A stretch of DNA of 64,000 nucleotides. Origin: Heterodontus francisci. Its lineage: Eukaryota. The stretch spans positions 57,934,559-57,998,558 of the forward strand of contig NC_090376.1 of NCBI RefSeq assembly GCF_036365525.1, given 5' to 3'. Shown here one piece after another: positions 1 through 56,600 of this stretch; positions within the stretch are counted from its first letter, which is position 1; every line of letters begins with the position of its first letter. A program made the translations under genes and the position numbers. The notes beneath the pieces were generated by a model. It saw nothing but the letters and a program-made list of their open reading frames with translations, ran no database searches and was not told where the DNA came from.

Positions 1-899
1 AGATGTGGTTATCCCGAAGCTTAAGAATGTGCAGGCAGAGAGGGAATGGGTGACCTCCAGGCAGTAAAGGAGGACCAGGCAGGCAGTGCAGGAGTCCCCT
101 GAGTTGATCTCGATCTCAAACCAGTCTTAACTTCTAAATACTGGTGAGAGTGATGGCTCCTCTGGGGAGTGCAGCCAGAGCCAAGTCCATGGCACCATGG
201 CTGGCTCAGCTGTACAGGGGGGCAGAAGGAAGTTTGGGAAAGCATTAGTGATAAGGAATTCTATAGCTAGGGGAAACAGACAGGCTTTTCTGTGGCTGCA
301 GATGCAAATCCAGGATGGTATATTGCCTCCCTGGTGTCAGGGTCCAGGATGTTACTGAGCAGCTGCAGAGCACTCTGAGGGGGGGGGAGGAGAATGAACA
401 GCCAGTGGTTGTGGTCCATATTAGTACCGACATAGGCAGAAAGAGGGATGAGGTCCTGCAGACAGATTTTGGGGAAGTAGGAAAGAAACTAGCAAGCAGA
501 ACCTCAAAGGTAATAATCTCTGGATTACTTCCAGTGCCATGCGCTAGTGAGTATAGAAATAGGAGGATACAGCAGATGAATGCATGGCTAGAGAGATATT
601 ACAGGAGAGGCAGCTTTAGAATTCTAGGGCATTGGGACTGATTCTGGAGAAGATGGGACCTGTACAGGCCAGATAGTTTGCATCTGAAAAGAGCCGGGAA
701 TAATGTCCTTATGGGGTGATTTTGGGGACAGTTTAAGCTAACTTGGCAGGGGGATGGGAACCAGGATTTAACATTAGAGAGGAAAAATAAGGTGAACAAA
801 GAATTGGGAGAGACAAATAGCACTAGGGTAGGAAATGGTAAGATATTAGATGGGATCAGAGTAAGAGGGAATGTAATAATTTCTAAATTAGGTTGAATA

Positions 900-3800
900 A
901 AAACGTTAAAAATGAGGTTAGTCTAAGATATGGCAGAGCAGGTTGTGTATCTGGACTGCAGAATGTGAGATTTTGCGCAGGGTGAGACTGTCCCAACCAA
1001 ATATGTTTGCAGGAGATCTCTCCCTTTCGACTCTCTCTGGCTCAGAATCATTGAGGTGGATGCGAGTTAGAGAGACTCCAACACATAAAGAAGGGAGGAA
1101 TTTCTGGACAGTTATATCCAGAATACAGTCACACCCCAGAGGAAAACACAGATTTGGGAAAGGAAGCTTGTGACTGTTAGGGAGTTGGGAAGTGGGGATT
1201 AAGGAGAGGTTGAGAAGGAGGTCCCCCAGGCATTGGTCCTGTCCAATCGGTACGCTGTACATGCTACCTGTTAGGAAAAGGAGAAAGACTGCAGGGAGGA
1301 CACCGTGACTCACAGGCTGTTTAAGGTGGTGGTGGGGTGGGGGTGGGGGGGAGCAGAATAGTGGCAGTAATAGGAGACTCTGTAATTAGGGGCATAAATA
1401 TCGTCCTCTTCAGCCAAGAGTGAGAATCCCGAAGGGCATGTTGTCTACCTGATGCCAGCCAGGATAAGGGATATCTCACGGCGACTGGAGAAAAACTTGA
1501 AAAGGTGAGGGGAGTAAATCCAGTTGTTGTGGTCGATGTTGGAACAAACGACATAGACAGCAACAGGGAGGAGGTCCTGCTGAAAGAGTATCAGGAAGGA
1601 GGCTCTAAATTAAAAAGCAGGACCTCGAGGGTAAGTGTCTCTGGATTATTGCTCGAGCCAAGTGCAAATTTGCATAGGAGCAGACAGATCAAGGGAATTA
1701 ACACATGGCTAAAGGGCTGATGTGGGAAAGAGGGATTCCTTTTCATGGGACTCAAGATCCACCTGAACCGGGATGAGGGGACCCGTGTCCTAGCAGAAAG
1801 AGTAAATAGGGAGGTGGCGAAGGCTTTAAACGAGTAAGATTGGGGGAGGGATATACAAGAAACGGAAGAAGCCTAAATGTAAACAAAACAGGGAAGGAGA
1901 GCATAGGAAAGAATAACGTAAGGGATAGCTAGGGAATAAATAGAGTTATAGAACAGGAGACTGAAGAGATAGTTAAGCATAAAGTGAAAGGAAATCTTAT
2001 TAAAAATGAGTAAAAATGTCTGTACAGCAATGCACACTGTGTCCATAATAAAACAGGGGAGCTGGAGGCAATTATGCATTGGGAGGAACCAGACATAATA
2101 GGGATTACTGAGACATGGGACTGAATTTTCCGAGCAAATGGGAGGCGGGGCGCCTGGTAAAATAATGATGGAAGGCGTCAGAATGGAAGTCCGATGCCTT
2201 GATTATCAGTTCCGGATTTTCTGAAGGGCGGCCGGCATGGCAGGAGGAACAGCCGCTTCGATGTGGTGGCAAGGTAATTAAGCCTGTTAATCAGAGAATT
2301 GACTCAATTTTTATGGGGCTAATGGAATTTTATAAGGGGCGCATGGGGATCAAGGGACTTCGAAGCTTCACCAGTTATATGGAGACGGTGTTGGGGCAGA
2401 GGTCAAGACTGGTCACAGACAGCCATTGGTGGTGAGAGCCTTGTACTGAGGGAAGGGTGTGACAGCGTGGGCATTGCCATTGACACCCAGGAGCAGTTTA
2501 GAAATATGTTTGGGTGCCAGGGATTGGCTGGCACAGTGCCAATCATCAGGTGGCACACCAGGGACTGTAGGAAGGCTGGGTGGGGAGGCGTGGAGAGTCT
2601 GGGGGAAGAAGGCTTTGTAACCTCTGTGCAGAGACTTGCCATGGGCCTCATCCAGTCAGGCTTCGGGACTTCCTGTGAGGAGGACCATGTGCACGCTGCT
2701 TTCTCCTCCGACGAGGAGCTGGAAGTAGATGACAAGCAGGCGTGAGATGAAGAGGCAGCTCAATGACCGCTACCAAGTCGAGAGGCAAGACACAGAAGGG
2801 AGGCTAGGGAGACATTTCAGTTGAAGCTGCTTGTATGATCTGAGCAATCCAATAAAATGCCAGGTTTCTGCAGCCCTGATGCCTACCGCTTCATTGTACT
2901 CAAAGTATGTCTGCACACAAGACATGACACAGTGTCATGGGGATGGCATTGACCTCATGCACTGTAGTGTCTTCCAGCATTCCCTTTAAGGGAGCCAGGT
3001 GCCTTGAAGGCCAGAGATCGCAAGATAAGTAGAGGTCTAACACTTGTCCTGCCACATTCCATTTTTATTTGGGGCCGTTCCAAATTGTACGTCCCCTTTA
3101 CAATACAAAGTAATCATCTGCGAACCTTGAGTGCAGCTAGGTGCTCAGCTTAAATCTTTTACAGGTGCTACTACGAGATGCTCCCCTGCACCGTCAGATG
3201 AGGTGGAGGCAGGCTGCTGATCCTGCTGCCCTTTTGCGGTCAATGGCCTTGGTGGCCATCCTCTGGATGCCTGAGGCCTGGAGGGCCTTGGCAAACTGAG
3301 AGCCTCCTGCACTGCTGCAGGGCTCACCTCCATCATTGGTCCACTTGAGGTTCAGGGGTCACTGTTGAGGGTCTGAGGGGGCGGCAGCCACTCCAGGCGC
3401 ACCCTGAGAGGAGCCTGAAGTTGCATCAGCCTGCCACTCCTCTTCCCTTTGAAGACACACTTGAACCTTCCTGCTCACCTGAGGTGCTTGAGGACCTGAC
3501 AGTAAATCCATGCGCCTCTCCCCCATCTTGCCCATCCACTGGTCCATGGAACAAATGGAAGTGGCGATGTCATGCAGGTTCGAGTATGTCTCCTGCATCC
3601 ACTAAGTGACCTTCTGCATTTGAGTTGCCAAGCTCTGAATGGAGGAAGCCAAGCTCGCGCACACCAGAGGCAAGGCTTCACTGATGGCCTGGATGGACTC
3701 CTCCATTGCCCACGCCAGGGTGTGCGTAGCCTCTGGCAGCTCCGCCTAATGTCCCCTGACCTCACACTGCAGATCCAGCAGCTGACTCCAGTGGCATGTC

Positions 3801-6577: not shown

Positions 6578-7318
6578 TATTAGATAGGCTGGTTGTACTT
6601 AAAGTTGATAAGTCACCAGGACCAGATGAGAGGGATCTGAGGACACTGAGAGAATTAAGGATAGAAATTGCAGAGGCACTGGCCATAATCTTCCAATCCT
6701 CCTTAGATACAGGGGTGGGGCTAGAAGACAGGAGTATTGCAAATGTTACACCCTTGTTCATAAAAGGGTATAAGGATAAGCCAAGCAACTACAGGCCGGT
6801 GTCAGTGGTGGGAAAGCTTTTAGAAACGATAATTTGGGAAAAAATTAACTGTCACTTGGACAAATATGGATTAATTAAGGAAAGCAAACATGACTTTGTT
6901 AAAGGCAAATCGTGTTTAACTAACTTGCTTGAGTTTTTGATGAGATAACAGAGAGGGTTGATGAGGGTAATGAGGCTAACAAAATGTGTTTGATAAAGTG
7001 CCACGTAACAGGCTTGTCAACAAAATTAAAGCCCGTGGAATAAAAGGGACAGTGGCAGCATGCATACGGAGTTGGCTGAGTGACAAGAAACAGACTAGTT
7101 AGTGGTAAACGGTTGTTTTTCAGACTGAAGGGATCCCCAGGAGCCCTTTTCAGGACCACTGCTTTTTTTGATTTATATTAATGACCTAGACTTAGGTGTG
7201 CAGTTTACAAATTCAAAATTTGCAGATGACACAAAACTTGGAAGTATTGTGAACTATGAGGAGGATAATTATAGACTTCAAGAGAACATAGGCTGGTGGA
7301 ATAGGCAGACACGTGGCA

Positions 7319-8089
7319 AATAACATTCGCGCCACACAAGTGCCAGGCAATGACCATCTCCAACAAGAGAGAATCTAACCATCGCCCCTTGACATTCAAT
7401 GGCATTGCGGTCGCTGAATCCCTTACTATCAACATCCTGGGGGTTATCATTGACCAGAAAATGAACTGGAGTAGCCATATAAATACCGTGGCTACAAGAG
7501 CAGGTCAGAGGCTAGGAATCCTGCAGCGAGTAACTTCACCTCCTGTCTCCCCAAAGCCTGTCCACCATCTACAAGGCACAAATCAGGAGTGTGATGGAAT
7601 ACTCGCCACTTGCTTGGATAGGTGCAGCTCCAACAACACTCAAGAAGCGCGACACCATCCAGGACAAAACAGCCCACTTGATTGGCACTCCATCCACAAA
7701 CATCCCCTCCACCACCAACACACAATGGCAGTAGTGTGTACCATCTACAAGATGCACTGCAGCAATGCTCCTTCAACAGCGCCTTCCAAACCCATGACCT
7801 CTACCACCTAAAAGGACAAGAGCAGCAAATGGTTGGGAACACCACCACCTGTAAGTTTCCCTCCAAGCCACACACCATCCTGACTTGGAACTAGATCGCC
7901 ATTCCTTCACTGTCGCTGGGACAAAATCCTGGAACTCCCTTCCTAACAGCTCTGTGGGTGCACCTACCCCACATGGACTGTAGCGGTTCAAGAAGGCAGC
8001 TCACCACCACCTTCTCAAGGGCAATTAGAGATGGGCAATAAATGCTGGCCTTGTCAGCGATGCCCACATCCCACAAATAAATAAAAAAA
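7319..8089 (+). mobile_element. 5'-truncated copy of the Zenon-like CR1-clade LINE
   Basis: Collinear with 27413-28201 (HKCQAMTISNKRE..., MEYSPLAW); ends GCCCACATCCCA plus an A-rich tail. Confidence 0.85.
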
Positions 8090-12019: not shown

Positions 12020-12658
12020 TAGAATTAGAATTAGAATTAGAATTAGAACATTACAGCGCAGTACAGGCCCTTCGGTCGTCGATGTTGCGCCGACCTGTGA
12101 AACCATCTGACCTACACTATTCCATTTTCATCCATATGTCTATCCAATGACCACTTAAATGCCCTTAAAGTTGGCGAGTCTACTACTGTTGCAGGCAGGG
12201 CGTTCCACGCCCCTACTACTCTCTGAGTAAAGAAACTACCTCTAACATCTGTCCTATATCTATCACCCCTCAACTTAAAGCTATGTCCCCTCGTGTTTGC
12301 CATCACCATCCGAGGAAAAAGACTCTCACTATCCACCCTATCTAACCCACTGATTATCTTATATGTCTCTATTAAGTCACCTCTCCTTCTCCTTCTCTCC
12401 AACGAAAACAACCTCAAGTCCCTCAGCCTTTCCTCGTAAGACCTTCCCTCCGTACCAGGCAACATCCTAGTAAATCTCCTCTGCACCCTTTCCAAAGCTT
12501 CCACATCCTTCCTATAATGCGGTGACCAGAACTGCACGCAATACTCCAGGTGCGGTCTCACCAGAGTTTTGTACAGCTGCAGCATGACCTCGTGGCTCCG
12601 AAACTCGATCCCCCTACTAATAAAAGCTAACACACCATATGCCTTCTTAACAGCCCTA
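12020..12658 (-). mobile_element. Young 5'-truncated CR1 (same family as 18531-22461)
   Basis: ORF 12112..12756 C-terminus is nearly identical to that of ORF 19816..22386; (TTCTAA)n tail; ATAT at 12016-12019 and 12659-12662. Confidence 0.92.
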
Positions 12659-13985
12659 ATATGGTGGTAAATAAATGGTGGGAAACATTTAAACAAACAA
12701 GATTCAACAAAAATACATTCCATTAAAAAAACAAAAGCTTTGCAGGAAAGATCCATCCGTGAATTTCTAGGGAAGTTAAGGATGGTATTAGATTAAAAGA
12801 AGAGGATTGGATTGGGTGTGTTTTAGAAACCAGCAAAGGGCGAACAAAAAGTTGATGAAAAGAGGAAAAATTAAAATATGAGAGTAAACTAGCCAGGAAT
12901 ATAAAAACAGATTGTAAGAGCTTTTACAAGTATACGCAAAGGAGGAGAGTAGCTAAAGTAAACATTAGTCCCAAAGAAGACAGGGGAAATTATCATGGAG
13001 ACTGAGGAAATGGCAGAGACGTCAAACAAATATTTGTGTCTGTCTTCACAGTAGAAGATACAAATTACATAGCAGAAATAAAGGGTAACCAAGGGCCTAA
13101 TAAGAGTGAGGAACTTAAGTTTATTAATATCAGCAGAGAAAAAGTATTGGAGAAACCTGAGGGACTAAAAGCTAACAAATCCCCAGGACCTGATGGCCCA
13201 CATCCTAGGGTTCTAAAAGAGGTAGCTGTAGAGATAGTGGATGCACTGGTTATGATCTTCCAAAATTCCCTAGATACTAGTAATGGTCCCAGTGGATTGG
13301 AAGTTAGCAAATGTAACACCACTTTTCAAAAAAGGAGGGAAAGAGAAAAAGACGACTACAGGTCAGTTGGCCTGACATCAGTCATCGGGAGAATGTTGGA
13401 ATCAATTATTAAGGAAGTCTTAACAATGCACTTAGAAAATCATAGCATGATCAGACAAAGCCAACATAGTTTTACAAAAGGGAAGTCACGTTTGACAAAT
13501 TTATTAGAGTTTTTTGAGGATGTAACTAGTAGGGTAGATAAAGGGGAACCAATAGACGTAATATACATGGATTTTCAAAAGGCATTTGTTAAGGTGTCAC
13601 ACAAAACGATAATACACAAGATAAGGGCGCATGGAGTTGGGCTAATATGTTAGCATGGATAGAGGATTGGTTAACGGACAGGAAGCAGAGAATAGGGATA
13701 AACAAGGCATTTTCAAGGTGACAGGCTGTAGCTAGTGGAGTGCCGCAAGGATCATGCTGGAGCCTCAGCTATTTACAATCTATATTAATGATTTAGACAA
13801 AGAGACAGAGTAATATATTTAAGTTTGCTGAAGATACAAAGCTAGGGAGTAATGTAAGCTGCGAAGAGGAATCAAAGAGGCTGCAAAGAGAACAGGTTAA
13901 GTGAATGGGCACAAGTTGGCAGGTGGAGTATAATGTGGACAAGTGTGAGGTTATTCACTTTGCTAGTAAAAACAGAAAAGCAGAA

Positions 13986-14610: not shown

Positions 14611-17600
14611 ACAGAATACCTTTTAAAAGGCTTGAAACTTCTAAATGTTGATGTTCAGAGAGACTTGGGTGTACTCATACAAGGAACACAGAACATTAGC
14701 ATGCCGGTACAGCAAGCAATTAGGAAGGCAAATGGCATGTTGGCCTTTATTGCAAGGGGATTGGAGTACAAGAATAAGGAAGTCTTGCTACAATTGTACA
14801 GGGCTTTGGTGAGACCACACCTGGAGTACTGTGTGCAGTTTTGATCTCCATATTTAAGGAAGGATATAGTTGCATTGGAGTTGGTACAGCGAAGGTTCAT
14901 TAGATTGGTCCCTGGGATGAGAGGGTTGTCCAATGATGAAATGCTGAGTTAATTGGGCCTTTACTCTCTGGAGTTTAGAAGAATGAGAGATGATCTCACT
15001 GAACCATACAAGATCTGAAGAAGCTTGACAGGGTAGACACTGAGAGGTTGTTTTCCTGGCTGGGGAATTTAGAACATGGTAGCACAGTCTCAGGATAAGG
15101 GGCCGATCATTTAAGACTGAGATGAGGAGAAACATCTTCGCTCAAAGGGTTGTGAATCTTTGGAATTCCCGACCCCAGAGGGTTGTGGATGCTCTATCAG
15201 TGAATATATTTAAGGCTGAGACAAACAGATATTTGATCTCACAGGGAATCAAGGGATATGGAGTGTGGGCAGGAAAGTGGATTTGAAGCTGAAGATCAGC
15301 CATGATTATATAGACTGGTGGATCAAGCTCAAGGAGCCATATGGTCTACCCCTGCTCCTATTTCTTATGTTCTTATTCTATGCCAACCCCATGAGACAAA
15401 TACTTTAACCTCCTGAACTCACAAGGAGATCACAATGGTTTTCCTGAAGTGGCAGCTTGGGGTATCTGATATTCTCCATTCACAAAGTCTGTATTTTGGA
15501 ATTTAAAATACAAGCCTATTTTAAATGTTAACTTATTTTACCAAAACATTAGAGGGGCAGCCCTATCTATATTGCTGCGATGTACATGCACTTGGTATAT
15601 TTACTTGAATGTCATTCTCCTAGCACATTAAGAAGAAATAGCTGCTGCATCAATGATACTCAATAGCAGTATGCTCTTCTGATAAAACTGTTTAATTATA
15701 TGAACCTATGTTATGAAAGCTATTTTCTTTTTGGTCTTTAAATTTTATTATGAGGAGTGCGGAATTTGAGTTTATTATCAGTGTTATTGCTGTTAAATCC
15801 ATGTTCTGTAGCCAGGTGACAGGTTTGTAGATTCCAGGCTTGTACACAAGACTGCTGCCTGGTTGCAGAAAACAGATCAAACATTCCAAATGCTGGGAGC
15901 TGTTTAACATTGCTGGGCTCCTGGAATCCAAATTAAAAGACCAACATTAATCATTCATTGCTGATGATGTGGGTTTTTCTCAAAATCTGATACATTACAG
16001 CAAACATGATCTTGCTTTTTAATTATTATCCATTTTGCCAAGGGTCACTGTTCTTAAATCAGATCAATACTAGTAGTAATGTCTATTTCTTACTATTTCT
16101 CACGAGACTAGTAACCCAAAGCCCCAGGCTAATCCTCTGGGGATACAGGTTCGAATCCCACTATGGCAGATGATGGAAATCGAATTCAATTAATAAAAAA
16201 AATCTAGAATTAAAAGCTAGTCTAGTGGTGACCATGAAACTATTGTCAATTGTTGTAAAAACACATCTGCTTCACTAATGTCCTTTAGGGATGGAAATCT
16301 GCTGGCCTTACCTGGTCTGGCCTACATTTGACTGCAAACCCACAGCAATGTGGTTGACTCTTAAATGCCTTCTGAAATGGTCTAGCAAGCTACTCAGTTG
16401 TATCAAACCTTTACAACGCCTAAGAAAAGGAGTGAAACCAGACGGACCACCCGGCATCGATCCAGGCATCGGAAATGACAACGGCAAACCCAGCCCTGCG
16501 ACCCTGCTTCTGGGGGCTTGTGCCAAAATTGGGAGAGCTGTCCCACAGACCAGTCAAGCAACAGCCTGACATAGTCATACTCTGGGAATCATACCTTGAA
16601 GATAATGTCCCAGACACCACCATCACCATCCCTGAATATGTCCTGTCCCAACGGCAGGACAGATCCAACAGAGGTGGTGGCACGGAGGTATACAGTCAGG
16701 AGGGAGTTGCCCTGGGAGTCCTCAACATTGTCTCTGGACCCATGACGTATCATTGGATCAGGTCAAACATGGGCAAGGAAACCTCCTGCTGATTACCACC
16801 TACCACCCACCCCCCCCCCCCCCCGCCCCCCCCCCCCCCTTGGCTGATGAATCACGATCTCCATGTTGAACACCAATTGGAAGAAGCACTGAGGGTAGCA
16901 AGGGCACAAAAATGTACTTTGGGTGGGGGACTTCAATGTCCGTCACCAAGAGTGGCTCGGTAGCACCACTACTGACTGAGCTGGCCCAGTCCGAAAGGAC
17001 ATAGCTGCTAGACTTGGTCTGCGGCAGGTGGTGAGGGAACCAACAAGAGGAAAAACCTACTTGACCTCGTCCTCACCAATCTACCTGTCACAGATGCATC
17101 TATCCATGGCAGTATTGGTAGGAGTGACCACTGCACAGCCCTTTTGGAGACGAAGTCCCATATTCACATTGAGAGTACCTACCATCGTGTTGTGTGGTAC
17201 TACCAGTGTGCGAAATGGGTTAGATTTCAAACAGATCAAGCAACTCAAAACTGGGCATCCATGAGGCGCTGTGGGCCATTAGCAGCAGCAGAATTGTAGT
17301 CAACCACAATCTGTAACCTCACAGCCCGGCATATCCCCCACTCTACCATTACCATCAAGCCAGGGCATCAACCCTGATTCAATGAAGAGTGCAGGAGGGC
17401 ATGCCTAAAAATGAGGTTCCAGCCTGGTGAAACTGCAACACACGACAACTTGCATGCCAAACAGCAGAAGAAGCATGCAATCGAAAGGGCTAAGCGATCC
17501 CACAACCAATGGATCAGATCCAAGCTCTCCAGCCCTGCCACATCCAGTTGTGAATAGTGGTGGACAATTAACCAACAGAAAGGAGGAGGAGGCTCCACAA

Positions 17601-18572
17601 ATATCTCCATCCTCAATGATGAAGGAGCCCAGCACATCAGTGCAAAAGAAAAGGCTGAAGCATTTGTATCCATCTTCAGCCAGAAGTGCCAAGTGGATGT
17701 TCCATCTCGGCCTCCTACTGAAGTCCCCATCATCACAGATGCCAGTCTTCAGCCAATCCGATTTACTCCACGTGCTACCAAGAAACGGCTGAAGGCACTG
17801 GATACTGCAAAGGCTATGGGCCCTGACAACATTTTGGTAATACTACTGAAGACTTCTGCTCCAGAACTAGCCATGCCCCTAGCCAAGCTGTTCCAGTATA
17901 GCTACAACACTTGCATCTACCTGGCAATATGGAAAATTGCCCAGGTATGTCCTGTGCACAAAAGGCAGGACAAATCTAACCTGGCCAATTACCTCCCTTT
18001 TCATTCTACTCTTGATCATCAGCAAAATGATACGAACATACGAATTAGGAGCAGGAGTAGGCCACTCGACCCTTCGAGCTGGCTCTGCCATTCAATAAGT
18101 TTATGGCTGAGCTGATTATTCCACATTTCCACCTACCCCCTTGCTTATCAAGAATTCACCACCTCTCCCTTAAAAATATTCAGACTCTGCTTCCACCGCC
18201 TTTTGAGGAAGAGAATTCCAAAGACTGACGACCCTCTGAGAGACAAAACTTCTCCTCATCTCTGTCTTAAATAGGTGACCCTTTTTTTAAACAGTGACCC
18301 CGAGTTCTAGATTCTCCCAGAAGGGGAAACATCCTTTCCACATCAATCCTGTCAAGACCCCTCAGGATCTCATATGTTTCAATCAAGTTGCCTCTTACTC
18401 TTCTAAATTCCAGCGGATACAAGCCTAGCCTGTCCAATCTTTCCTCATAAGACAGCCCGCCCATTCCAGGTATTAGTCTCGTAAACATTCTTTGTACTGC
18501 CTCCAATGCATTCACATCCTTCCTTAAATATCATGTGATTGGTTAAAAACTTGGGAATTTAGAATAGTGGGA

Positions 18573-19502
18573 ATGGAGGTTAAGGCAGTTGAATGTTCCT
18601 CCTGCAGAATGTGGGAGGTAAGGGTCGCCAAGGGTGTCCCTGCTGACTGCATCTGCGGGAAGTGCACCCAGCTCCAGCTCCTCGAGGACCGCGTTAGGGA
18701 ACTGGAGCTGGAGGAACTTCGGATCATTCGGGAGGCGGAGGGGATTATTGAGAGGAGTTATCGGGAGGCAGTCACACCTCAGGTAAAAGAAGAAGGTAGA
18801 TGGGTTACCGTCAGGGGAAGGAGAGGGAACCAGCAGGCAGTGCAGGGATCCCCTGTGGCCGTTTCCCTCAACAACAGGTATACTGTTTTGGATACTGTTG
18901 GGGGAGACGACTTACCAGGGGTAGGCAATGGGATACAGGTCTCTGGCGCAGAGTCTGTCCCTGTTGCTCAGAAGGGAAGGGGTAAGAGGAGCAGAGCATT
19001 AGTCATTGGGGACTCCATAGTTAGGGGAACAGATAGGAGGTTTTGTGGGAACGAGAGAGACTCACGGTTGGTGTGTTGCCTCCCAGGTGCCAGGGTACGT
19101 GATGTCTCGGATCGTGTTTTTGGGATCCTCAAGGGGGAGGGGGAGCAGCCCCAAGTCGTGGTACACATAGGCACCAACGACATAGGTAGGAAGACAGATG
19201 GGGATTTAAGGCAGAAATTCAGGGAGCTAGGGTGGAAGCTTAGAGCGAGAACAAACAGAGTTGTTATCTCTGGGTTGTTGCCCGTGCCACGTGCTAGCGA
19301 AGTGAGGAATAGGGAGAGAGAGGAGTTGAACACGCGGCTGCAGGGATGGTGTAGGAGGGAGGGTTTTGGTTTCCTGGATAATTGGGGCTCTTTCTGGGGT
19401 AGGTGGGACCTCTACAAACAGGATGGTCTTCACCTGAACCAGAGGGGTACCAATATCCTGGGGGGGAGATTTGCTAGTGCTCTTCGGGGGGGTTTAAACT
19501 AA
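18573..19502 (+). CDS. CR1 ORF1 protein (zinc finger/leucine zipper plus SGNH esterase)
   Basis: Open frame from ATG 18573: CSSCRMW...CGKC, a leucine-rich coil, then GDS, GTND and DGLH esterase blocks; ends GGLN-stop. Confidence 0.9.
   Translation: MEVKAVECSSCRMWEVRVAKGVPADCICGKCTQLQLLEDRVRELELEELRIIREAEGIIERSYREAVTPQVKEEGRWVTVRGRRGNQQAVQGSPVAVSLNNRYTVLDTVGGDDLPGVGNGIQVSGAESVPVAQKGRGKRSRALVIGDSIVRGTDRRFCGNERDSRLVCCLPGARVRDVSDRVFGILKGEGEQPQVVVHIGTNDIGRKTDGDLRQKFRELGWKLRARTNRVVISGLLPVPRASEVRNREREELNTRLQGWCRREGFGFLDNWGSFWGRWDLYKQDGLHLNQRGTNILGGRFASALRGGLN
19493..19499 (+). promoter_or_regulatory. Candidate -1 ribosomal frameshift slippery site T_TTA_AAC
   Basis: X_XXY_YYZ heptamer in ORF1 phase directly before the TAA. 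The -1 frame is open into the ORF2 endonuclease N-terminus with no AUG. The same heptamer occurs at 1825-1831 (+) and 24999-25005 (-). Confidence 0.6.
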
Positions 19503-22386
19503 TTCAGCAGGGGGATGGAAACCTAAATTGTAGTTCCAGTGTGCAGGATGTTGAGAGTAGTGAGGTCAGGGATAAGGTTATAAGGACACAAGAGGGCACT
19601 GGCAAGCAAGAGCGTGGTTTAAAATGTGTCCACTTCAAGGCCAGGAGCATCCGGAATAAGGTGGGTGAGCTTGCAGCATGGGTTGGTACCTGAGATCTCG
19701 ATGTTGTGGCCATTTCAGAGACATGGGTAGAGCAGGGACAGGAATGGATGTTGCGGGTTCCGGGATTTAGATGTTTCACTAAGAACAGAGAAGATGGTAA
19801 AAGAGGGGGGGGGGTGTGGCATGGTTAATCAAGGAAAGTATTACAGCGGCAGAAAGGACGTTTGAGGACTCGTCTACTGAGGTAGTCTGGGCCGAGGTTA
19901 GAAACAGGAGAGGAGAGGTCACCCTGTTGGGAGTTTTCTATAGACCTCCAAATAGTTCCAGAGATGTAGAGGAAAGGATAGCAAAGATGATTCTTGACAG
20001 GAGCGAGAGTAACAGGGTAGTGGTTATGGGGGACTTTAACTTTCCAAATATTGACTGGAAATACTATAGTTCGAGTACTTTAGACGGGTCTGTTTTTGTC
20101 CAGTGTGTGCAGGAGGGTTTTCTGACACAGTATGTAGACAGGCCAACCAGGGGCGATGCCACATTGGATTTGGTACTGGGTAATGAACCCGGCCAGGTGT
20201 TAGATTTAGAAGTTGGTGAGCACTTTGGTGATAGTGATCACAATTCGGTTAGGTTTACCTTAGCGATGGGCAGGGACAGGCATATACAGCAGGGCAAGAA
20301 TTATAGCTGGGGGAAAGGAAATTATGATGCGATTAGGCAAGATTTAGGATGCGTAGGATGGGGAAGGAAACTGCAGGGGATGGGAACAATCGAAATGTGG
20401 AGCTTATTCAAGGAGCAGCTACTGCATGTCCTTGATAAGTATGTACCTGTCAGGCAGGGAGGAAGTTGTCGAGCGAGGGAGCCGTGGTTTACTAAAGAGG
20501 TTGAAGAGCTTGTCAAGAGGAAGAAGAAGGCTTATGTTAGGATGAGACGTGAAGGCTCAGTTAGGGCGCTTGAGAGTTACAAGCTAGCCAGGAAGGATCT
20601 AAAGGGAGTGATAAGAAGAGCAAGGAGAGGACACGAGAAGTCATTGGCGGATAGGATCAAAGAAAACCCTAAGGCTTTCTATAGGTATATCAGGAATAAA
20701 AGAATGACTAGAGATAGGTTAGGGCCAATCAAGGATAGTAGTGGGAAGTTGTGTGTGGAATCGGAGGAGATAGGGGAAGTGTTAAATGAATATTTTTCGT
20801 CAGTATTTACAGTGGAGAAAGAAAATGTTGTCGAGGAGAATACTGAGATACAGACTACTAGGCTAGATGGGATTGAGGTTCACAAGGAGGAGGTGTTAGC
20901 AATTTTGGAAAGTGTGAAAATAGATAAGTCCCCTGGGCCAGATGGGATTTATCCTAGGATTCTCTGGGAAGCCAGGAAGGAGATTGCAGAGCCTTTGTCC
21001 TTGATTTTTATGTCGTCATTGTCGACAGGAATAGTGCCGGAAGACTGGAGGATAGCAAATGTTGTCCCCTTGTTCAAGAAGGGGAGTAGGGACAGCCCTG
21101 GTAATTATAGACCTGTGAGCCTTACTTCGGTTGTGGGTAAAATGTTGGAAAAGGTTATAAGAGATAGGATTTATAATCATCTTGAAAAGAATAAGTTCAT
21201 TAGAGATAGTCAGCACGGTTTTGTGAAGGGTAGGTCGTGCCTCACAAACCTTATTGAGTTTTTCGAGAAGGTGACCAAACAGGTGGATGAGGGTAAAGCA
21301 GTGGATGTGGTGTATATGGATTTCAGTAAGGCGTTTGATAAAGTTCCCCACAGTAGGCTATTGCAGAAAATACAGAAGTATGGGATTGAAGGTGAATTAG
21401 TGCTTTGGATCAGAAATTGGCGAGCTGAAAGAAGACAGAGGGTGGTGGTTGATGGTAAATGTTCATCCTGGAGTATAGTTTCTAGTGGTGTACCGCAAGG
21501 ATCTGTTTTGGGGCCACTGCTGTTTGTCATTTTTATAAATGACCTGGATGAGGGTGTAGAAGGGTGGGTTAGTAAATTTGCGGATGACACGAAGGTCGGA
21601 GGAGTTGTGGATAGTTCCGAAGGATGTTGTAGGTTACAGATGGACATAGATAGGCTGCAGAGCTGGGCTGAGAGATGGCAAATGGAGTTTAATGCGGAAA
21701 AGTGTGAGGTGATTCCCTTCGGAAGGAGTAACAGGATTGCAGAATACTGGGCTAATGGGAAGATTCTTGGTAGTGTAGATGAGCAGAGAGATCTTGGTGT
21801 CCAGGTACATAAATCCCTGAAAGTTGCCACCCAGGTTAATAGAGCTGTTAAGAAGGCATATGGTGTGTTAGCTTTTATTAGTAGGGGGATCGAGTTTAGG
21901 AGCCACGAGGTCATGCTGCAGCTGTACAGAACTCTGGTGCGGCCGCACCTGGAGTATTGCGTGCAGTTCTGGTCACCGCATTATAGGAAGGATGTGGAAG
22001 CTTTGGAAAGGGTGCAGAGGAGATTTACTAGGATGTTGCCTGGTATGGAGGGAAGGTCTTACGAGGAAAGGCTGAGGGACTTGAGGTTGTTTTCGTTAGA
22101 GAGAAGGAGGAGAAGAGGTGACTTAATAGAGACATATAAGATAATCAGAGGGTTGGACAGGGTGGATAGTGAGAGCCTTTTTCCTCGGATGGTGATGGCA
22201 AACATGAGGGGACATAGCTTTAAGTTGAGGGGTGATAGATATAGGACAGATGTCAGAGGTAGTTTCTTTACACAGAGAGTAGTAGGGGCGTGGAACGCCC
22301 TGCCTGCAACAGTAGTAGACTCGCCAACTTTAAGGGCATTTAAGTGGTCATTGGATAGACATATGGATGAAAATGGAATAGTGTAG
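19493..22386 (+). pseudogene. CR1 ORF2 (APE endonuclease plus reverse transcriptase), disabled near the N-terminus
   Basis: 856 open codons from 19816 (YRPP, GDFN, DSDH, GVPQGSVLGP, FADD). Upstream, the -1 frame reads LKCVHFKARSIRNK...ISETW, with a TGA at 19691-19693 and a frame change in the G10 run at 19805-19814. Confidence 0.9.
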
Positions 22387-25300
22387 GTCAGATGGTTTCA
22401 CAGGTCGGCGCAACATCGAGGGCTGAAGGGCCTGTACAGCGCTGTAATGTTCTATGTTCTAAGGAGACCAGTATTGTACACAGAACTCCAGATGTAGTCT
22501 CACCAATGTCCTGTATAGCTGAAGCATAACCTCCCTACTTTTGTATTCAATTCCTGTCACGATAAATGATAACATTCTATTAGCTTTCCTAATTATGTGC
22601 TGTACCTGCATACTAACCTTTTGCGCTTCATGTACTAGGACAGTCTGCATCTCAGAGTTCTGCAATCTCTTACCATTTAAATAATATGCTTCTTTCTTAT
22701 TCTTCTTGCCAAAGTGGACAATTTCACACTTTCTCACATTATACTCCATTTCCTGGTCTTTGCCCACTCACTTAACCTATCTATATCCCTTTGTAGTCCC
22801 CTTATGTCCTCTTCACAAGTTACTTTCCTACCTATCTTTGTGTCATCAGCAAATTCAGCAACCATTCCTTCGATCCTTTCATCTAAGTCATTTATATAAA
22901 TTGTAAAAAGTTGAGGCTCCAGCACAGATCCCTATGGCACACCACTCATTACATCTTGCCAAGCAGAAAGTGACCCATTTATGCCCACCGTCTTGTTTCT
23001 TGTTAGCAAGCCAATCTTCTATCATGCCAATATGTTACCCACTACACCACAAGCTTTTATTTTCTGCAATAACCTTTGATGTAGCACCTTATCAAATGCC
23101 TTCTGGAAATCTCAGTACAATACATCCACTGGTTCCCCTTTATCCATAGCACATGTAACTCCCTCAAAGAACTCCAATAAATTGGTTAAACATGATTTCC
23201 CTTTCACAAAACCATGTTGACTCTGCCAGATTGCCTTGAATTTTTCTAAATGCCCTGCTATAATGACTTTAATAATAGCTTCGAACATTTTCCCTAAGAC
23301 AGATATTAAGCTGACTGGTTTGTAGGTTCCTGCTTTCTGTCTTCCTCTCTTTTTGAATAAAGGAGTTACATTTGCTATTTTCCAATTTAATGGAACCTTC
23401 CCCGAATCTAGGGAATTTTGGAAAATTAAAACTAACGCATCAACTATCTCACTAGCCACTTCCTCTAACATCCTAGGATGAAGTCCATCAGGACCCCGGG
23501 ACTTGTCAGCCCGCAGCTCCAACAGTTTGTTCAGTACCACTTCCCTGGTGATACTAATTTTCTTGAGTTCCTCCCTTCCTTCCATTTCCTGACTTACAGG
23601 TAATACTGGGATGTTACTTGTATCTTCAATAGTGAAGACCGATGCAAAATATCTGTTCAATTCATCTGTCATCTCCTTATCATCCATTATTAATTCCCCA
23701 GACTCACTTTCTATAGGAACAATGCTCACTGGTTAACTCTTTTCTTTTTAAAATATCTATAGAAACTCTTACTAGCTGTCTTTGTATTTCTAGCTAGCTT
23801 TCTCTCTTACTTTAATTTTACCTTCCTTATCAATCTTTTAGTCATTCTTTGCTGTTTTTTATATTCTGTCCAATCTTCTGACCTGCCTCCCATCTTTGCG
23901 CAATTACATGCTTTTTCTTTAAGTTTGATACTATCTTTAACTGTTTTAGTTAACCATGGATGGCGGGACCCAGCCTTGGAATTTTTCTTTCTCGTTGAAA
24001 TGTATCTATTCTGTGTATTCTGAAATATCCCCTTAAATGTCTGCCACTACATCTCCATTGACCTCTCCCTTAACCTGATATGCCAGTTCACTTTAGCTAG
24101 CTCTGCTTTCATGCCCTCATAATTGCCCTTTTTAAGTTTAAAATACAAGGCTTGGACCCACTCTTCTCTCCTTCAAACTGAATGTAAAATTCAATCAATA
24201 CCTAGGGGCACTTTAACTATGAGGTCATTAATTAATCCTATCTCATTGCACAACACCAGGTCTAGTACAGCCTGGTCTCTGGTTGGCTACAGAACGTATT
24301 GTTCCAAGAAATTATCCTGAAAACATTCTATGTACTCCTCATCTAGGCTACCTCTGCCCATCTAATTTTTCCAATCTATATGTAGGTTAAAATCCCCCAT
24401 AATTATCGCTGTACCTTTCTGACAAGCTGCCATTATTTCTTCCTTTATACCCCATCGTACAGTGTGGTTAATGTTGGGTGGCCTGCACACCACCCCCACA
24501 AATGACTTCTTGCCTTTCTGATTTCTCATCTCTACTCAAACTGCTTCTACATCCTGGTCTCCTGAACTTAGGTCATCCCTCTCTATTCCGCTAATACCAT
24601 CATTAATTAACAGACTACGCCTCCACCTTTTCCTAGCTTCCTGTCCTTCCTAAATGCCATGTACTCTTCAATATTCAGGTCCCAATCTATGTCAGCCTGC
24701 AGCCATGTCTCTGTAATGGTTATCAGATCGCACTTATTTATTTCTATTTGCGCTCCCAGTTCATCTGTTTTGTTTTGAATGTTACTTGCATTCAGATATG
24801 GAGCCTTTAGTTTTGTCCTTTTATTATTTTTGTAACCTCTAGCCTTATCTGTTGATTTACTCTTAGATTTGTATGCTCTGTCCCTTCCTGTCACAGTCTG
24901 TTTATAATTTCCCATATTAATACCTTTCTCTCTTGCCTTGTCTCTACTCCTTGATTTACTATATCTTCCCAAATTTGATCCCTTGCCCCCACTATTCAGT
25001 TTAAAACCCTCTCTACTTCCTTAGTTATGCGGCTCACTAGAACACTGGCCCAGCACAGTTCAGGTGTAGACCATCCCAACAGTACAGCCACCACTTTCCC
25101 CAGTACTGCTGCCAGTGCCCCACGAACCAGAACCCATTTCTACCACACCAGTCCTTGAGCCATGCATTAATTTCTCTAATCTTATTTGCCCTATTCCAAT
25201 TTGCATGTGGCTGAGGTAATAATCCAGAGATTATTACCTTTGAGGTTCTGCTTCTTAATTTGGCACCTAGTTCCTCATACTGACTATGCAGAATCTCTTT

Positions 25301-25671
25301 CCTTGTCCTACCTATGTTGTTGGTACCTACATGGACCACGACAACTGGATCCTCCCCCTCCCACTGTACGTTGCTTTCCAGCCCTGAGCAGATGTCCCAA
25401 ACCCTGGCACCGGGAAGTCAATACAGCTGTCTGAACCCTCGCTCTTTGCTGCAGAGAACAGTGTCAATCCTCCTCAGTATACTGTCCCCACTACATTCCT
25501 TTTTACTCCCTCCACTTGAATGACTTCCTGTACCATAGTGCCATGGTCAGGTTGCTCATCCACTCTGCAGCCCCCACTCTCATCCAAACAAGCTGAAAGA
25601 ACCTCAAACTTGTTGGACAATCGCAAAGGCTGAGGCTCTCGCACTCCTGTCCTTTGGGTCCCCTTACCTGT

Positions 25672-25868
25672 CATAGAGTCGTAGAGTAATACAGCACAGA
25701 AATAGGCCCTTCGGCCCATTGTGTCCATGCCAGCCATCAAGCACCGAGCTATTCTAATCCCATTTTCCAGCACTTGGCCCGTAGCCTTGTATGCTATGGT
25801 GTTTCAAGTGCTCATCTAAATACTTCTTAAATGTTGTGAGGGTTCCTGCCTCTACCACCTCTTCAGGC
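25672..25868 (-). mobile_element. Short CR1 3' end inserted in ORF1 of the minus-strand CR1
   Basis: Reverse strand reads VVEAGTLTTFKKYLDEHLK plus tail; same family as ~39405-39600. Confidence 0.75.
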
Positions 25869-26534
25869 TGTGCCTCAGCTGCAGCCACACTCTCCTGTTC
25901 CTGACCACTGACCAAATCAGAAGACCCTACCCTAAGGGGTGTGACTGCCTCCTTGTACAAAATGTTCAGGTAACTTTCCCTTCCCTGATGTGTCGCAGTG
26001 TCTGCAGCTCGGACTCCAGTGCAATGACTCTGAGCCGAAGCTCTTCGAGCCGCAAACACTTACTGCAGACGTGTTTGCCCTGGATCACACTGGCATCCAG
26101 GAACTCCCACATGCTGCAGCCATGACACATCACCTGTCCTGCCATCTTTAATGTGTTTTAATTATCTAATTAATTATTTTATTCAATTGTTTATTTTATT
26201 TTCCTTTTTTTGTGTATTTTATTAAGCTTACCACTAGTTCCTTTACCATTTACGACATTAGGATTAGAATGGACCTCAATCACTTATCAGATATTCACCA
26301 AACAGTTAGCTTCTTCCCAAACTAATCACCTACCTACTTACCTGTGATGTTTGATGCTATGTTTGATTTAAATTAAATTAAACTATATACCCACCCCAGT
26401 GGCTCTCTGTTTCCCTGCTCTCACTGTTAATTGTGACGTCACTCTGATGTCACTTTTCGATTTTTCACTGCTTCGCTCCCACTGTGCACCTCTCTCTCTC
26501 TTCACTCCCACTGTGCTTCTCTCTCTCTCTCTCT

Positions 26535-26900
26535 CCGCTCCCACCGTGCTTTTCTCTCTTGCTCTGTCTATCTCCGGCTCTGGGCTTTTGGTGCACTTTT
26601 TAAACCTCTGTTCCCACCGTGCTCCTCTCTCTTGCTCTGTCTGTCTCTGGTCTCTGACTCTGGGCTCTTGGCGCACTTTTTAAACCTCCGCTCCCACTGT
26701 GCTCCTCGCTCTCTTGTTCTGTCTGTCTCTGGTCTCTGACTCTGGGCTCTTGGCGCACTTTTTAAACCTCCGCTCCCACTGTGCTCCTCGCTCTCTTGTT
26801 CTGTCTGTCTCCAGTCTCTGACTCTGGGCTGTTGGCGCATTTTTTAAACCTCCACTCCCACCTAGCTGCTCTCTCTCTTGCTCTGAGTGTCTCCAGTCTC
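26535..26900 (-). repeat. 80-82 bp tandem monomer array (about 4.5 copies) forming the CR1 5' UTR
   Basis: The unit anchor G(C/T)GCA(C/T)TTTTTAAACCTC recurs at 26591, 26671, 26753 and 26835; the array ends at the element's target-site duplication. Confidence 0.9.
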
Positions 26901-28445
26901 TTCCATCAAAGTGATGGAAGGAGTCATCAACAGTGCTATCAAGTGACACTTGCTCAGCAATAACCTGCTCACTGACGCTCAGTTTGGGTTCCGTCAGGGC
27001 CACTGAGCTCCTGACTTCATTACAGCCTTGGTCCAATCATGGACAAAAGAGCATTTGACTGAGTATGGCATCAAGGAGCCTCAGCAAAACTGGAATCAAT
27101 GGGAATCAGGGAGAAAACTCTCCTCTGGTTGGAGTCATACCTAGAACAAAGGACGACGGTGGTGGTTGTTAGAGGTCAATCATCTCAATCCCAGAACATC
27201 ACTGCAGGAGTTCCTCAGGGTTGTGTCTTCGGCCCAACCATCTACAGTTGCTTCATCAAAGACCTTCCTTCCATGACAAGGTCAGAACTGGGGATGTTCG
27301 CTGATGATTGCACAATGTTCAGCACCATTCACGACTCCTCATGATACTGAAGCAACCATGTCCATATGCAGCAAGTCCTAGACAACATACAGGCTTGGGC
27401 TGATAAGTGGCAAAGTAACATTCGTGCCACACAAGTGCCAGGCAATGACCATCTCCAACAAGAGAGAAACTAACCATCTCCCCTTGACGTTTAATGGCAT
27501 TACGATCGTTGAATTCCCAACTATCAACATTCTAGGTGTTACCATTGACCAGAAGCTGAACTGGAGTAGCCATATAAATACTGTGGCTACAAGAGCAGGT
27601 CGGAGGCTAGGAATCCTGCGGCAAGTAACTCACATCCTGTCTCCCCAATGCCTGTCCACCATCTGAAAGGTACAAGTCAGGAGTATGATGGAATACTCTC
27701 CACTTGCCTGGATGGGTGCAGCTCCAACAACACTCAAGAAGCTCGATACCATCCAGGACAAAGCAGCCCACTTGATTAGCACCCCATTTACCACCCTCAA
27801 CATGCACTTCCTCCACCACCGATGCACAGTGGCAGCAGTGTGTACCATCCACAAGATGCACTGCAGCAATGCACCAAGGCTCCTTAGACAGCATCTTCCA
27901 AACCCGCAACCTCTACCATCTAGAAGGACAAGGCAGCAGATGCATGGGAACACCACCAGCTGCAAGCTCCCCTCCAAGCCACGCACCATCCTGACTTGGA
28001 ACTATATCGCTGTTCCTTCCCTGTCATTGGGTCAAAATCTTGGAACTCCCTTCCTAACAGCACTGTGGGTGTACCTACACCCCAAGGACTGCAGCAGTTC
28101 AAGAAGGCAGCTCACCATCACCTTCTCAAGGACAATTAGGGATGGGCAATAAATGTTGGCCGAGCCAGCAACGCCCACATCCCACGATCAAATGAAAAAA
28201 ATCTTGCATGTGCTATACATGTTAACATAGGATGCGCTTCCGCTCAATTTTATATAAACATTACAACGTTCTGTATTTATGACTATTAATTTGGCTAAAA
28301 TAAAATGTGAATATTTAGGACATCTTTCCTCATCTAGATATCTATCACTACCATAAGAGGAAGACAGGACTTTTAAAGGCTTCATATGCAGTAAGTCCTG
28401 AGGTTTGAAATGATTTTTGTTTAAGAAAAATCATTCAATTAGATT

Positions 28446-37674: not shown

Positions 37675-38107
37675 GTGGGAGATGGTGTAATAGTGGTAAT
37701 GTCACTGAACTAGTAATCCAGATGCCCAGACCAATGCCCTGGGGACACGGGTTCAAATCGCACCACGGCAGCTGGTGGAATTTAAATTCAATTAATTAAA
37801 TAAGTTCAATTAACTAATAAAAAAAGTCTGGAATTGAAAGTTAGTCTCTGTAATGGTGCCATGAAACTATCATTGATTGTCATAAAAACCCATTTGGTTC
37901 ACTAATGTCCTTTAGGGAAGGAAATCTGCTGTCCTTACCTGGTCTGGCCTACATGTGACTCCAGACCCATAGGAATGGGTCTCTTAACTGCAACTGCCTT
38001 CTGAAATAGCTTAGCATGCCACTTAGTTGTTTAGGGCAATTAGCGATGGGCAACAAATGCTGGCCTTGCCAGCAATGCCCACATCCCATGCAAGAATTTT
38101 TTAAAAA
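37675..38107 (+). mobile_element. tRNA-derived SINE sharing both ends with the Zenon-like LINE
   Basis: Degenerate A-box at ~37684-37697; B-box GGTTCAAATC at 37750. The body matches 16106-16401. The tail GGCAATTAG...GCCCACATCCCA matches 28132-28185. Confidence 0.85.
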
Positions 38108-53636: not shown

Positions 53637-56600
53637 TATGGCTCGGTGACGTCTTCTGCGGAAAAACACCTTTGACCACCGGTCCATCAGGCAGTGGTCT
53701 GCACGGAATGTCCTCAAGGCCCTACGGGAAAAGGAAACGGTGGATCCTGTCGGATGGTTCCCCGAGCAGACCGTCAAAGTCATTTGGCGGAATGCCTCAT
53801 CACCAGAACTTTCAAACAAGCACCAAGACGTAGCTTGGCTGGTGGTGAGAAGGGCCCTCCCCGTCAGATCCTTCATGCACACCCGAAGTCTCGCCCCCTC
53901 CGCACAGTGCCCCCGCGTTGGCTGTGGTGGGGAAGAGACGGTCGCCCACCTCCTCCTGGAATGTGCCTTTGCAAAGCAGGTGTGGAAAGAGATGCAGTGG
54001 TTTTTGTCAAGGTTCATCCCAAGCAGCTCTGTAACACAGGAGTCTGTGCTCTACGGGCTGTTCCCAGGGACGCACACCGAGACAAACATCAACTGCTGCT
54101 GGAGGACTATCAATTCGGTGAAAGACGCCCTTTGGTCTGCCCGAAACTTGCTGGTCTTCCAGCGCAAAGAGTTGTCCACCACCGAATGTTGCAGACTGGC
54201 ACATTCCAAGGTCCAGGACTACGTGCTGAGGGACGCACTAAAGCTTGGGGCAGCCGCAGCAAAGGCTCAATGGGGAAAGACCACAGTGTAAGGTTCCCCC
54301 ACCAAGCTGGACTGAGGGGCTGGAACCATGGGAAGCCCCTCGAACTGTATCGTTAATATTCTCAATTGCTGTAAATGTAAAACTGTAATTGACATGACAA
54401 TTGTGAAACGGAAGGGTTGGGAAGAAACTCATGACATTATTGAAAGAAACTGATCTCTTTTGCAATGTTTGTATTTTTTCGTGCTGTTTGGAAACTGTTT
54501 GGCAATGTAATTTTTACAGATTTTTATGAATAAAGTATATTTTGGGAAAAAAAAATGGCTCGGTGACGTCTTCGCAGTCCAACTTACTAAGGATCAGCAA
54601 ATCCTTTTATGCTGGGCTGTATGACGCGAAGCCCACAGACAGCAGAGCCTCCCAGTCCTTCCTGTCATCTATCACAGAGGTCTTAGATGACAGCAGGAGG
54701 GAGAGACTGGACAAGCCGCTAACTCTGGATGAGCTGACAAAGGCCGTCGAGACCTTCGAGACGAGTAAAACTCCCGGAAGTGACGGCTTACCGGTCGAGT
54801 TGTACTCGGCCCTATGGGACTGGGTCGGCCCGGACCTGCTGGAAGTATACGAGAGTATGCTCCTGGCTGGCAGCATGTCAGAATCCATGAGGAAAGGCAT
54901 CATCACCCTCATTTACAAGCTGAAGGTGAGAGGGCAGAAATCAGAAATTGGCGGCCCATCTCACTGCTTAATGTTGACAACAAGATTCTGTCCAAAGTCA
55001 TAGCCAGTCGAGTCAAGTCTGCTCTGGATTTGGTGATCCACCCCGATCAGACCTGTACTGTACCCGGCAGGAAGATCTCTGATAGTCTCGCGCTACTCAG
55101 GGATACGATCGCCTACGTACGGGACAGGAGGGTGGACGCATACCTCATCAGCCTGGACCAGGAGAAGCTTTTGACAGGATATCGCAGACCTACATGATGG
55201 ACGTGCTTTCCAAAATGGGGTTTGGGGAGGGAATCTGCAATTGGATCAAACTGCTCTACACAAACATCAGTAGCGCAGTCTCAATCAATGGATGGGAATC
55301 GGAAAGTTTCCCGATCCAATCTGGAGTCAGACAGGGCTGTCCTCTCTCCCCGGTCTTGTTTGTTTGCTGTATTGAACCCTTTGCTGAGTCTATTAGGAAG
55401 GATGCAAGCATAAGAGGGGTGACAATCCCAGGCAGCGGAGGCACTCAGGTTAAAACCGCCCTATACATGGATGACGTCGCCATCTTCTGCTCGGATCTGC
55501 TGTCTGTGCGCAGACTGATGAGCATCTGCGACCAGTTCGAACTGGCCTCGGGAGCCAAAGTTAACCACGGCAAGAGTGAGGCCATGTTCTTTGGGAACTG
55601 GGCTGACCGATCCTTTGTCCCCTTCACCGTCAGGTCAGACTACCTGAAGGTGCTGGGGATATGGTTCGGAAGGGCCGGGGCGTGCACCAAAATCTGGGAG
55701 GAGCGAGTAGCCAAGGTACAACAAAAGTTGAGCATGTGGAGGCAGCGATCTCTTACCATTGTGGGTTTGAACCTGGTCATCAGGTGCGAGGCGCTCACGT
55801 TGTTGCTGTACGTGGCGCAGGTCTGGCCCATATCCCACTCCTGCGCTGTGGCGGTCACCCGAGCCATTTTCCGCTTCATCTGGGGATCTAAAATGGACAC
55901 GATGTTCAAACCTCTGGATAAGGGCGGGAAAAACGTACCCAACGTGGCCCTCATCCTGATGACCACCTTCGTGTGCAGCTGCATCAAGCTGTGTGTAGAC
56001 CTCCAGTACGCAAACTCCAAGTGTTGAGGTTCTATCTGTCCCCGGTGTTGCGAAGGATGGGCCTGGTCACATTGCCGCGGAACGCTCCATGCAGTTGGAC
56101 CGTGCCGTACCACCTATCCTTCGTGGAGCAGTTTCTGCGGGAAAACACCTTTGACCACCAATCCATCAGGCAGTGGTCTGCACGGAATGTCTTCAAGGCC
56201 CTACGGAAAAGGAGACGGTGGATCCTGTCGGATGGTTACCCGAGCAGACCGCCAAAGTCATTTAGCAGAATGCCTCATCACCAGAACTTTCAAACAAGCA
56301 CCAAGATGTAGCTTGGCTGGTGGTGAGAAGAGCCATCCCTGTCAGATCCTTCCTGCACGCCCGAAGTCTCGCCCCCTCTGCGCAATGCCTCCGCGGTGGC
56401 TGTGGTGGGGAAGAGACGGTTGCCCACCTCCTCCTGGAATGTGTCTTTGCAAAGCAGGTGTGGAAAGAGATGTAGTGGTTTTTTGTCGAGGTTCATCCCA
56501 AGCAGCTCTGTAACACAGGAGTCTGTGCTCGACGGGCTGTTCCCAGGGACGCACACCGAGACAAACATCAACTGCTGCTGGAGGACTATCAATTCGGTGA

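Follow-up and report, generated by a model that had tools for sequence, protein, structure and literature searches.

The window, a 64,000-nucleotide stretch of Heterodontus francisci DNA, holds a LINE copy in two pieces on the forward strand (16106-18030 and 26907-28200; Table 1). We assign both pieces to one insertion because the two halves meet with a 7-nt overlap in full-length genomic copies; in the window, 8.9 kb of nested repeats separate them. Judged by its sequence, this LINE is a decayed copy of elasmobranch Zenon, a 3.3-kb, single-ORF, poly(A)-tailed retrotransposon. An APE endonuclease and a reverse transcriptase (RT) were found on natural copies (Pfam PF14529, PF03372 and PF00078), and the 16 copies inspected have A-rich 3' ends, with a T run before the A run in four. 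The window copy is damaged at its 5' end: the ~15-25 nt that open the family head, an A-box-like motif among them, are missing or interrupted.

Table 1. Features of the Zenon copy and its relatives in the window (positions are those of the window)
Feature	Position	Strand	Remarks
Separate 5'-truncated copy of the same Zenon LINE family	7304..8089	+	
Candidate D-arm/A-box remnant of the head	16071..16083	+	Cut off by a short insert; found by eye, chance possible
tRNA-like head	16101..16170	+	Anticodon arm with AGT loop, long variable arm, T arm; older subfamily B type
B box	16148..16158	+	GGTTCGAATCC
Leader/body common to LINE and SINE	16171..16401	+	
Two-codon ORF	16377..16385	+	AUG, one sense codon, UAG
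Single ORF, 5' half	16386..18030	+	APE endonuclease and linker; decayed; three TTTT runs, probably acquired
LINE-specific linker	16402..16510	+	Start of out-of-frame uORF and Arg-rich in-frame stretch
Nested insertions splitting the Zenon copy	18031..26906		CR1-type LINEs and other repeats
3' half of the copy	26907..28200	+	RT domain, 3' UTR, A tail
Tail common to LINE and SINE	28127..28200	+	Last 4 codons, stop, 3' UTR, A tail
Partner SINE, older family	37675..38107	+	tRNA head and body up to 38030, LINE tail from 38031

A sequence-only reading of this DNA had proposed that the LINE begins with a head containing a B box, reaches its endonuclease about 100 bp later, and shares this head with a SINE that then jumps to the LINE tail. 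Each of these points holds: the B box is in place, the endonuclease starts ~105 nt after 16401, the head matches the SINE in a window self-comparison (16107-16401 versus 37709-38030, 74% identity, E = 1e-56), and the SINE end aligns to the LINE 3' ends at 28129-28184 and 8018-8073. The same reading had counted three sense-strand TTTT runs in the LINE by eye; we find them at exactly 17142, 17832 and 17998, and none in 26907-28200 or 7304-8089, in a window with 6.3 TTTT per kb overall. Since all three are absent from the family majority described below, they are likely mutations acquired after insertion.

The window contains other repeats as well. A CR1 LINE nested within the Zenon copy (18528-22386) has an ORF1-like frame of 324 codons and, in ORF2, an open stretch of 861 codons, and a 3' fragment 96% identical to this CR1 lies at 12037-12661 on the opposite strand. 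The endonuclease region of the Zenon copy contains a poly-C tract of ~30 nt (16806-16838). An L1/Tx1-like element at 53650-57030 has two 3' parts in tandem (53654-54555 and 56133-57030) that are 92% identical.

The tRNA-like head across the family

A query of the genome with the head-linker junction gave 40 of 40 scored matches, from 5,571 candidates. At 27 of 29 other loci selected in this way, the whole head is present from one sharp boundary with unrelated flanks; in this set L014 and L022 are truncated, and L019 and L021 share flanks. The bias of a junction query was removed by a second genome search with endonuclease DNA alone, and among the 29 other loci so selected 16 extend into the initial 7 nt of the head, eight end inside the head and five inside the linker. 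In this second set only L037 and L040 have a flank in common, and in both it precedes a complete head. The genome contains 3,532 exact copies of a 32-nt junction motif and a further 667 with one base changed, against none for the reversed control, and both the head-linker junction and the SINE joint are bridged in contigs from sequencing runs of other organisms.

Long copies with no such head, a different 5' UTR or an ORF1 had been named in the sequence-only reading as what would mark the locus as a one-off. We encountered none: no alternative common leader or ORF1 appears among the 29 endonuclease-selected loci, and the published shark and ray consensuses agree in the part compared. Seven of these (CarCar, RhiTyp, ScyCan and HypSab Zenon-1, and SquAca Zenon-1 to -3) open with the same head, leader and junction, as assessed by motif matches and by eye over their first 400 letters (Stuart et al., 2026; PMC13343379). 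Within the same 400 letters, the head is not present in two hagfish consensuses and one coelacanth Zenon consensus (PMC13343379). The tRNA-like head is a real, family-wide trait of a catalogued Zenon family.

We extended 20 loci to 4.8 kb, of which 19 reach the 3' region and 16 were aligned for a majority sequence; three loci with deletions or breaks (L067, L075 and L080) and one with a large insert (L069) were left out. In its 3,290 nt the majority runs from the tRNA-like head through the leader and a single frame of 972 codons (nt 310-3228) to an A tail. The absence of an ORF1, read from the window alone, is thus borne out and is ordinary for Zenon, which is defined by that absence together with a poly(A) tail, the latter unique in the CR1 group (PMC13343379). 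Thirteen of the copies form subfamily A; the other three form subfamily B, which is noisy, its majority containing eight stops. In a quick RT tree of 37 rows (two short rows dropped), which holds no named Zenon reference, the element groups weakly with one amphioxus protein and unnamed proteins (SH-aLRT 81) and lies apart from the CR1 of the window. Stretches of the LINE protein, at 64-83% identity, also occur in public shark gene models (P0003, P0008, P0011 and P0012; aldo-keto reductase, GPR139 and transporter), where they are likely annotation artefacts or exonised copies.

tRNA fold of the head

ARAGORN called 7 of 25 heads as tRNA under default settings, against 0 of 500 shuffles, and 22 of 25 under relaxed settings (85%), against 2 of 500; a conserved motif served to pick the heads, some of which are those of SINEs. 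In the fold, an AGT anticodon is accompanied by a long variable arm. We take the anticodon to point to Thr and the variable arm to Ser or Leu. Family heads conserve both A- and B-box motifs at the 5' end, and the window copy has lost its A box; ARAGORN found no tRNA in the whole window. An Rfam scan of one LINE copy gave chance matches only, with no tRNA, ribozyme or IRES family among them.

A search of the genome for a parent tRNA returned only Lys and Thr(TGT) genes. The tRNA-Lys(TTT) genes stand in tandem arrays with ~1.7-kb spacing (10.9-11.15 Mb of contig C28 in the genome labelled G000; loci L129-L158 cover C28 and C35), and tRNA-Thr(TGT) is present in many near-identical copies on C35 (18-26 Mb) and on small contigs.

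A partner SINE with both ends of the LINE

The SINE consists of nt 1-325 of the LINE majority joined to nt 3216 onward, that is, to the last 75 nt, which include the last four codons. It has the features of its class: it is short, non-coding and dispersed, with a tRNA-like head bearing A- and B-box motifs and a tail that aligns with that of the LINE. Two SINE junction motifs have 1,152 and 3,136 exact matches. The first belongs to the older family that includes the window SINE, which is 10% diverged from its majority; 17 copies form one clade (support 0.998), and by eye their diagnostic bases match the dogfish LINE head. The description of the SINE as just the two ends of the LINE stands for the family. 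The window SINE belongs to an older family, which has diagnostic bases of its own, and does not derive from the window LINE copy.

Most of the 3,136 matches come from the second junction, which is shorter by two bases. Among 21 full-length SINEs with this junction, ten heads are of the young LINE-A type, five are of the old type and six are mixed. A young group, 2% diverged, clusters with LINE A in a single clade (support 0.97) and has a mosaic tail of LINE-like and old-SINE-like bases; it comprises at least 40 copies at 96-100% identity (L104 and L189-L218; G000:C2:173343001 and others). Since young SINE heads track young LINE heads, the two head lines are not separate, and either the SINE was regenerated from the current LINE or heads were swapped.

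The sequence-only reading had offered two origins, capture of a SINE by a LINE or internal deletion of a tRNA-headed LINE. Both survive our comparisons, which instead indicate that the heads change together over time, and for the first origin we regard deletion and capture as about even. Deletion is favoured because Zenon is known to make such derivatives (PMC6740152). Capture is favoured because the shared 325 nt have no detectable match in head-less relatives and the linker has a weak one: in 15 comparisons in all, no homology of head or body to the leaders of head-less invertebrate-type relatives was found (body P = 0.18-1.0), and the linker alone gave alignments, to L118 (z = 4.4) and, more weakly, to L111 (P = 0.02). 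Further head-to-tail joints, at 592 to 3507 and 537 to 3508 of L072, occur in sequencing runs of three organisms and may be more SINE subfamilies or independent deletions.

T runs on the sense strand

The sense strand of the 16-copy majority contains no TTTT and 15 AAAA; single copies contain between zero and four TTTT. The sequence-only reading had suggested counting T4 runs against a codon-shuffled null. Avoidance of T runs survives a synonymous-codon null, and for TTTT alone it is borderline across the nulls used (P = 0.02-0.08). Synonymous shuffles with codon usage kept predict 2.1 TTTT (P = 0.08) and looser nulls 3.5-3.8 (P = 0.018); because the ORF is only 20% T, depletion of TTTT by itself is weak. 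TTT runs number four, compared with 12.8 ± 2.6 expected under the synonymous-codon null, and none of 300 shuffles was as low. Windows with four T in five number one, compared with 10.9 expected (P = 0.002). TTT is the sixth lowest of the 64 trimers and, with only CpG trimers below it, the most depleted non-CpG trimer, and its depletion recurs in each of five natural single-copy frames (P ≤ 0.02).

No TTT depletion was found in six head-less relatives from metagenome contigs or in the nested CR1 of the window, which served as a control; one of these relatives, L119, has a mild deficit of four-T-in-five windows (P = 0.013). Neither pyrimidine tracts nor splice motifs are depleted in the LINE. 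Avoidance of splice sites is thus not supported as the cause of the T depletion. On these counts, the sense strand, and it alone, avoids the Pol III terminator in the head-bearing lineage.

The idea that the element has its own terminator in the T run next to the A tail is not supported, as the run is present in only 4 of 16 LINEs and in 3 of 20 SINEs chosen without it; the sets in which 27 of 30 and 9 of 27 carry it came from queries holding that run. LINE and SINE tails often read GAA, a T run and an A run, about 10 in total (window 38093-38107, L062, L064, L070 and L190-L218), and old SINE heads have an internal A tract with similar T runs. The tail T runs could be mutations of the A tract, or the product of termination followed by polyadenylation.

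Reading frame and leader

The 972-codon frame has its first in-frame Met at codon 282, past the endonuclease, and ten AUGs lie upstream of the endonuclease in the majority. No fully open ORF was found among 20 copies. Differences between subfamilies A and B fall at third codon positions in 105 of 202 cases, a bias that suggests selection on the headed lineage's own ORF.

Within this genome's family, the two-codon ORF is in frame with the long ORF, its UAG lies directly 5' of the long frame, and the modal spacing of the leader AUG to the long ORF is in frame. The stop is present in 38 of 50 inspected copies and absent in 12. Read-through of the UAG from the leader AUG fits these observations; we do not favour it, because in the consensuses of whale shark and dogfish the AUG, codon and UAG do not, by eye, stay in frame with the ORF (PMC13343379). 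Variants with a sense codon in place of the UAG (16383-16385) are also found in the non-coding SINE; among the first 100 listed of the 667 matches of this kind, GAG far exceeds AAG, a pattern also seen in SINEs that points to a sub-lineage or to a hot spot of mutation. A second leader AUG (GTG at 16432 in the window, ATG in the family) opens an overlapping out-of-frame uORF of 43-46 codons, in which no canonical -1 slippery site was seen by eye.

In the published consensuses of five sharks and rays, from dogfish to stingray, a leader block of ~140 nt (~16260-16401) looks nearly invariant, more so than the tRNA head. The block gave no folding signal (z = -0.38). We regard it as a candidate element that may set translation entry, and AUG-independent entry or reinitiation as the likeliest class of start, this being the weakest step in the model discussed below.

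Discussion

Textbooks divide retrotransposons into LINEs, which code for protein and are transcribed by Pol II, and SINEs, which are non-coding and transcribed by Pol III. The elements described here suggest a path across that division. TFIIIC and Pol III would start at the tRNA-like head and, meeting no TTTT, continue for 3.3 kb. For the resulting uncapped RNA, with ten AUGs in its leader, translation would have to begin independently of AUG, by internal entry or reinitiation, and the conserved leader probably determines where. Once made, the EN-RT protein would recognise the 3' tail of the RNA and integrate it through target-primed reverse transcription; the same 3' tail would let it mobilise the SINE. 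Heads of LINE and SINE have likely been exchanged, by template switching or repeated internal deletion, and so stay alike.

The architecture of the family, the tRNA fold, the depletion of T runs, the absent in-frame AUG and the partner SINE made of two LINE ends are observed; transcription and translation we infer, the former on good indirect evidence, and we lean towards the reading that the Zenon LINE is a Pol III-transcribed autonomous element with AUG-independent translation. The bolder description, in which the element is a self-sufficient SINE that codes for protein and its 3.3-kb RNA a natural mRNA made by Pol III, we give an even chance. A Pol III reporter has been reported to make protein, with yield rising once TTTT was removed, from an RNA far shorter than 3.3 kb (PMC8223928).

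An alternative that we judge unlikely, and the most serious of those considered, accepts the head as real and family-wide and has Pol II make the coding RNA, which would either start at a cryptic promoter within the leader or the CpG-rich linker or be read through from host genes; the tRNA part would then be an RNA structure, an insulator or a relic, and T-poverty would have another cause. LINE promoters characterised to date are Pol II promoters and often replaced, which counts against a Pol III reading (PMC2881922). Pol II transcripts have also been reported from Pol III promoters, translation is easier for a capped RNA, and TTTT depletion by itself is borderline. Scanning from a cap would nevertheless be equally hard, with ten AUGs before the endonuclease and no in-frame AUG, and the leader contains AATAAA twice. 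The depletion, moreover, is specific to T runs, sparing pyrimidine tracts, and co-occurs with the head, and copies begin at the first base of the tRNA.

It is less probable still, and in our view very unlikely, that the headed form is transcribed by Pol III and is mostly a passenger, its protein supplied in trans by the minority of copies with a sense codon at the leader UAG, or by copies under host Pol II promoters. The 667 exact junction matches with a sense codon, versus 3,532 with UAG, and the stop-free copies among the 50 inspected would be the source of such protein. Against this, sense-codon variants are not peculiar to coding elements, the UAG is retained, or its region lost, in all seven published consensuses in which the site can be seen, the frame from the leader AUG is not kept in two species, and the third-position bias suggests that the headed lineage's own ORF was under selection. 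A one-off SINE-LINE chimera, or a SINE inserted beside a truncated LINE, might be imagined from the damaged 5' end and interruption of the window copy and is ruled out for practical purposes: the junction has exact matches by the thousand, copies with unrelated flanks start at one common 5' boundary, and other sharks and a ray show the same structure.

If the Pol III reading is right, a high-copy shark and ray LINE with a tRNA head and terminator avoidance crosses the division between LINEs and SINEs and offers a natural system in which to test the reach of Pol III and the translation of an uncapped RNA with no AUG. SINE and LINE heads that evolve together would also be a living case for the origin and movement of SINE heads and bodies. 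The element is compact (3.3 kb, a single ORF and a putative internal promoter of its own), which makes it easy to assay.

The elasmobranch Zenon LINEs of PMC13343379 belong to the same family as the window LINE, with no ORF1, APE and RT domains, poly(A) and a length of about 3.3 kb. The family itself is thus already in print, and its head is apparently unremarked there: 'tRNA', 'Pol III' and 'polymerase III' do not occur in the main text, nor 'tRNA' in the supplement, and in the portions of that report on which we drew we found no description of the head, the T-run depletion, the absent AUG or the partner SINE. A search of the open literature (with Repbase, Dfam, SINEBase and subscription journals outside its scope) found no report of a tRNA-headed or Pol III-transcribed Zenon LINE, nor of any other LINE transcribed by Pol III. 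RTE-1_DAn is a LINE that has been noted to hold a tRNA-like piece.

Transcription by a polymerase other than Pol II has a precedent in R2, a Pol I co-transcript with a possible IRES, which differs in having neither a promoter of its own nor a tRNA head; unconventional initiation has been discussed for R2 and for ORF2 of L1 and SART1, where ORF2 is coupled to an ORF1 and there is likewise no tRNA head (PMC2881922). Among shark SINEs, SacSINE1 (Deu, with an L2/CR1-4_DR-like tail) and HE1 (V-SINE, with a HER1 tail) are also tRNA-headed with a LINE-derived tail; going by their descriptions, they are set apart from the SINE reported here, as their reported partners are L2-2_CM and HER1 and its tail is that of Zenon (PMC5499810, PMC3747384).

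The closest parallels are elements that share both ends with a LINE. The lepidopteran Zenon derivative Persaeus, a SIDE, is likewise a short non-autonomous element made from two Zenon ends, with repeated origin and a poly(A) end, whereas it has no tRNA homology or Pol III promoter and the 5' end of the shark element is a tRNA head (PMC6740152). The shark SINE accordingly agrees with the definition of a SIDE in being two LINE ends and departs from it in its tRNA homology. The bipartite SINEs of RTE and Vingi (Bov-tA, MAR1 and AfroSINE) also share 5' and 3' sequence with a LINE, but there it was the deleted derivative that gained a tRNA head, which the LINE does not carry (Kojima, 2018; PMC5786205). 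The sequence-only reading took SINEs normally to share only a 3' tail with their partner; sharing of both ends is known from bipartite SINEs and SIDEs (PMC5786205, PMC6740152), and what is unusual in the shark system is a tRNA head on the LINE itself.
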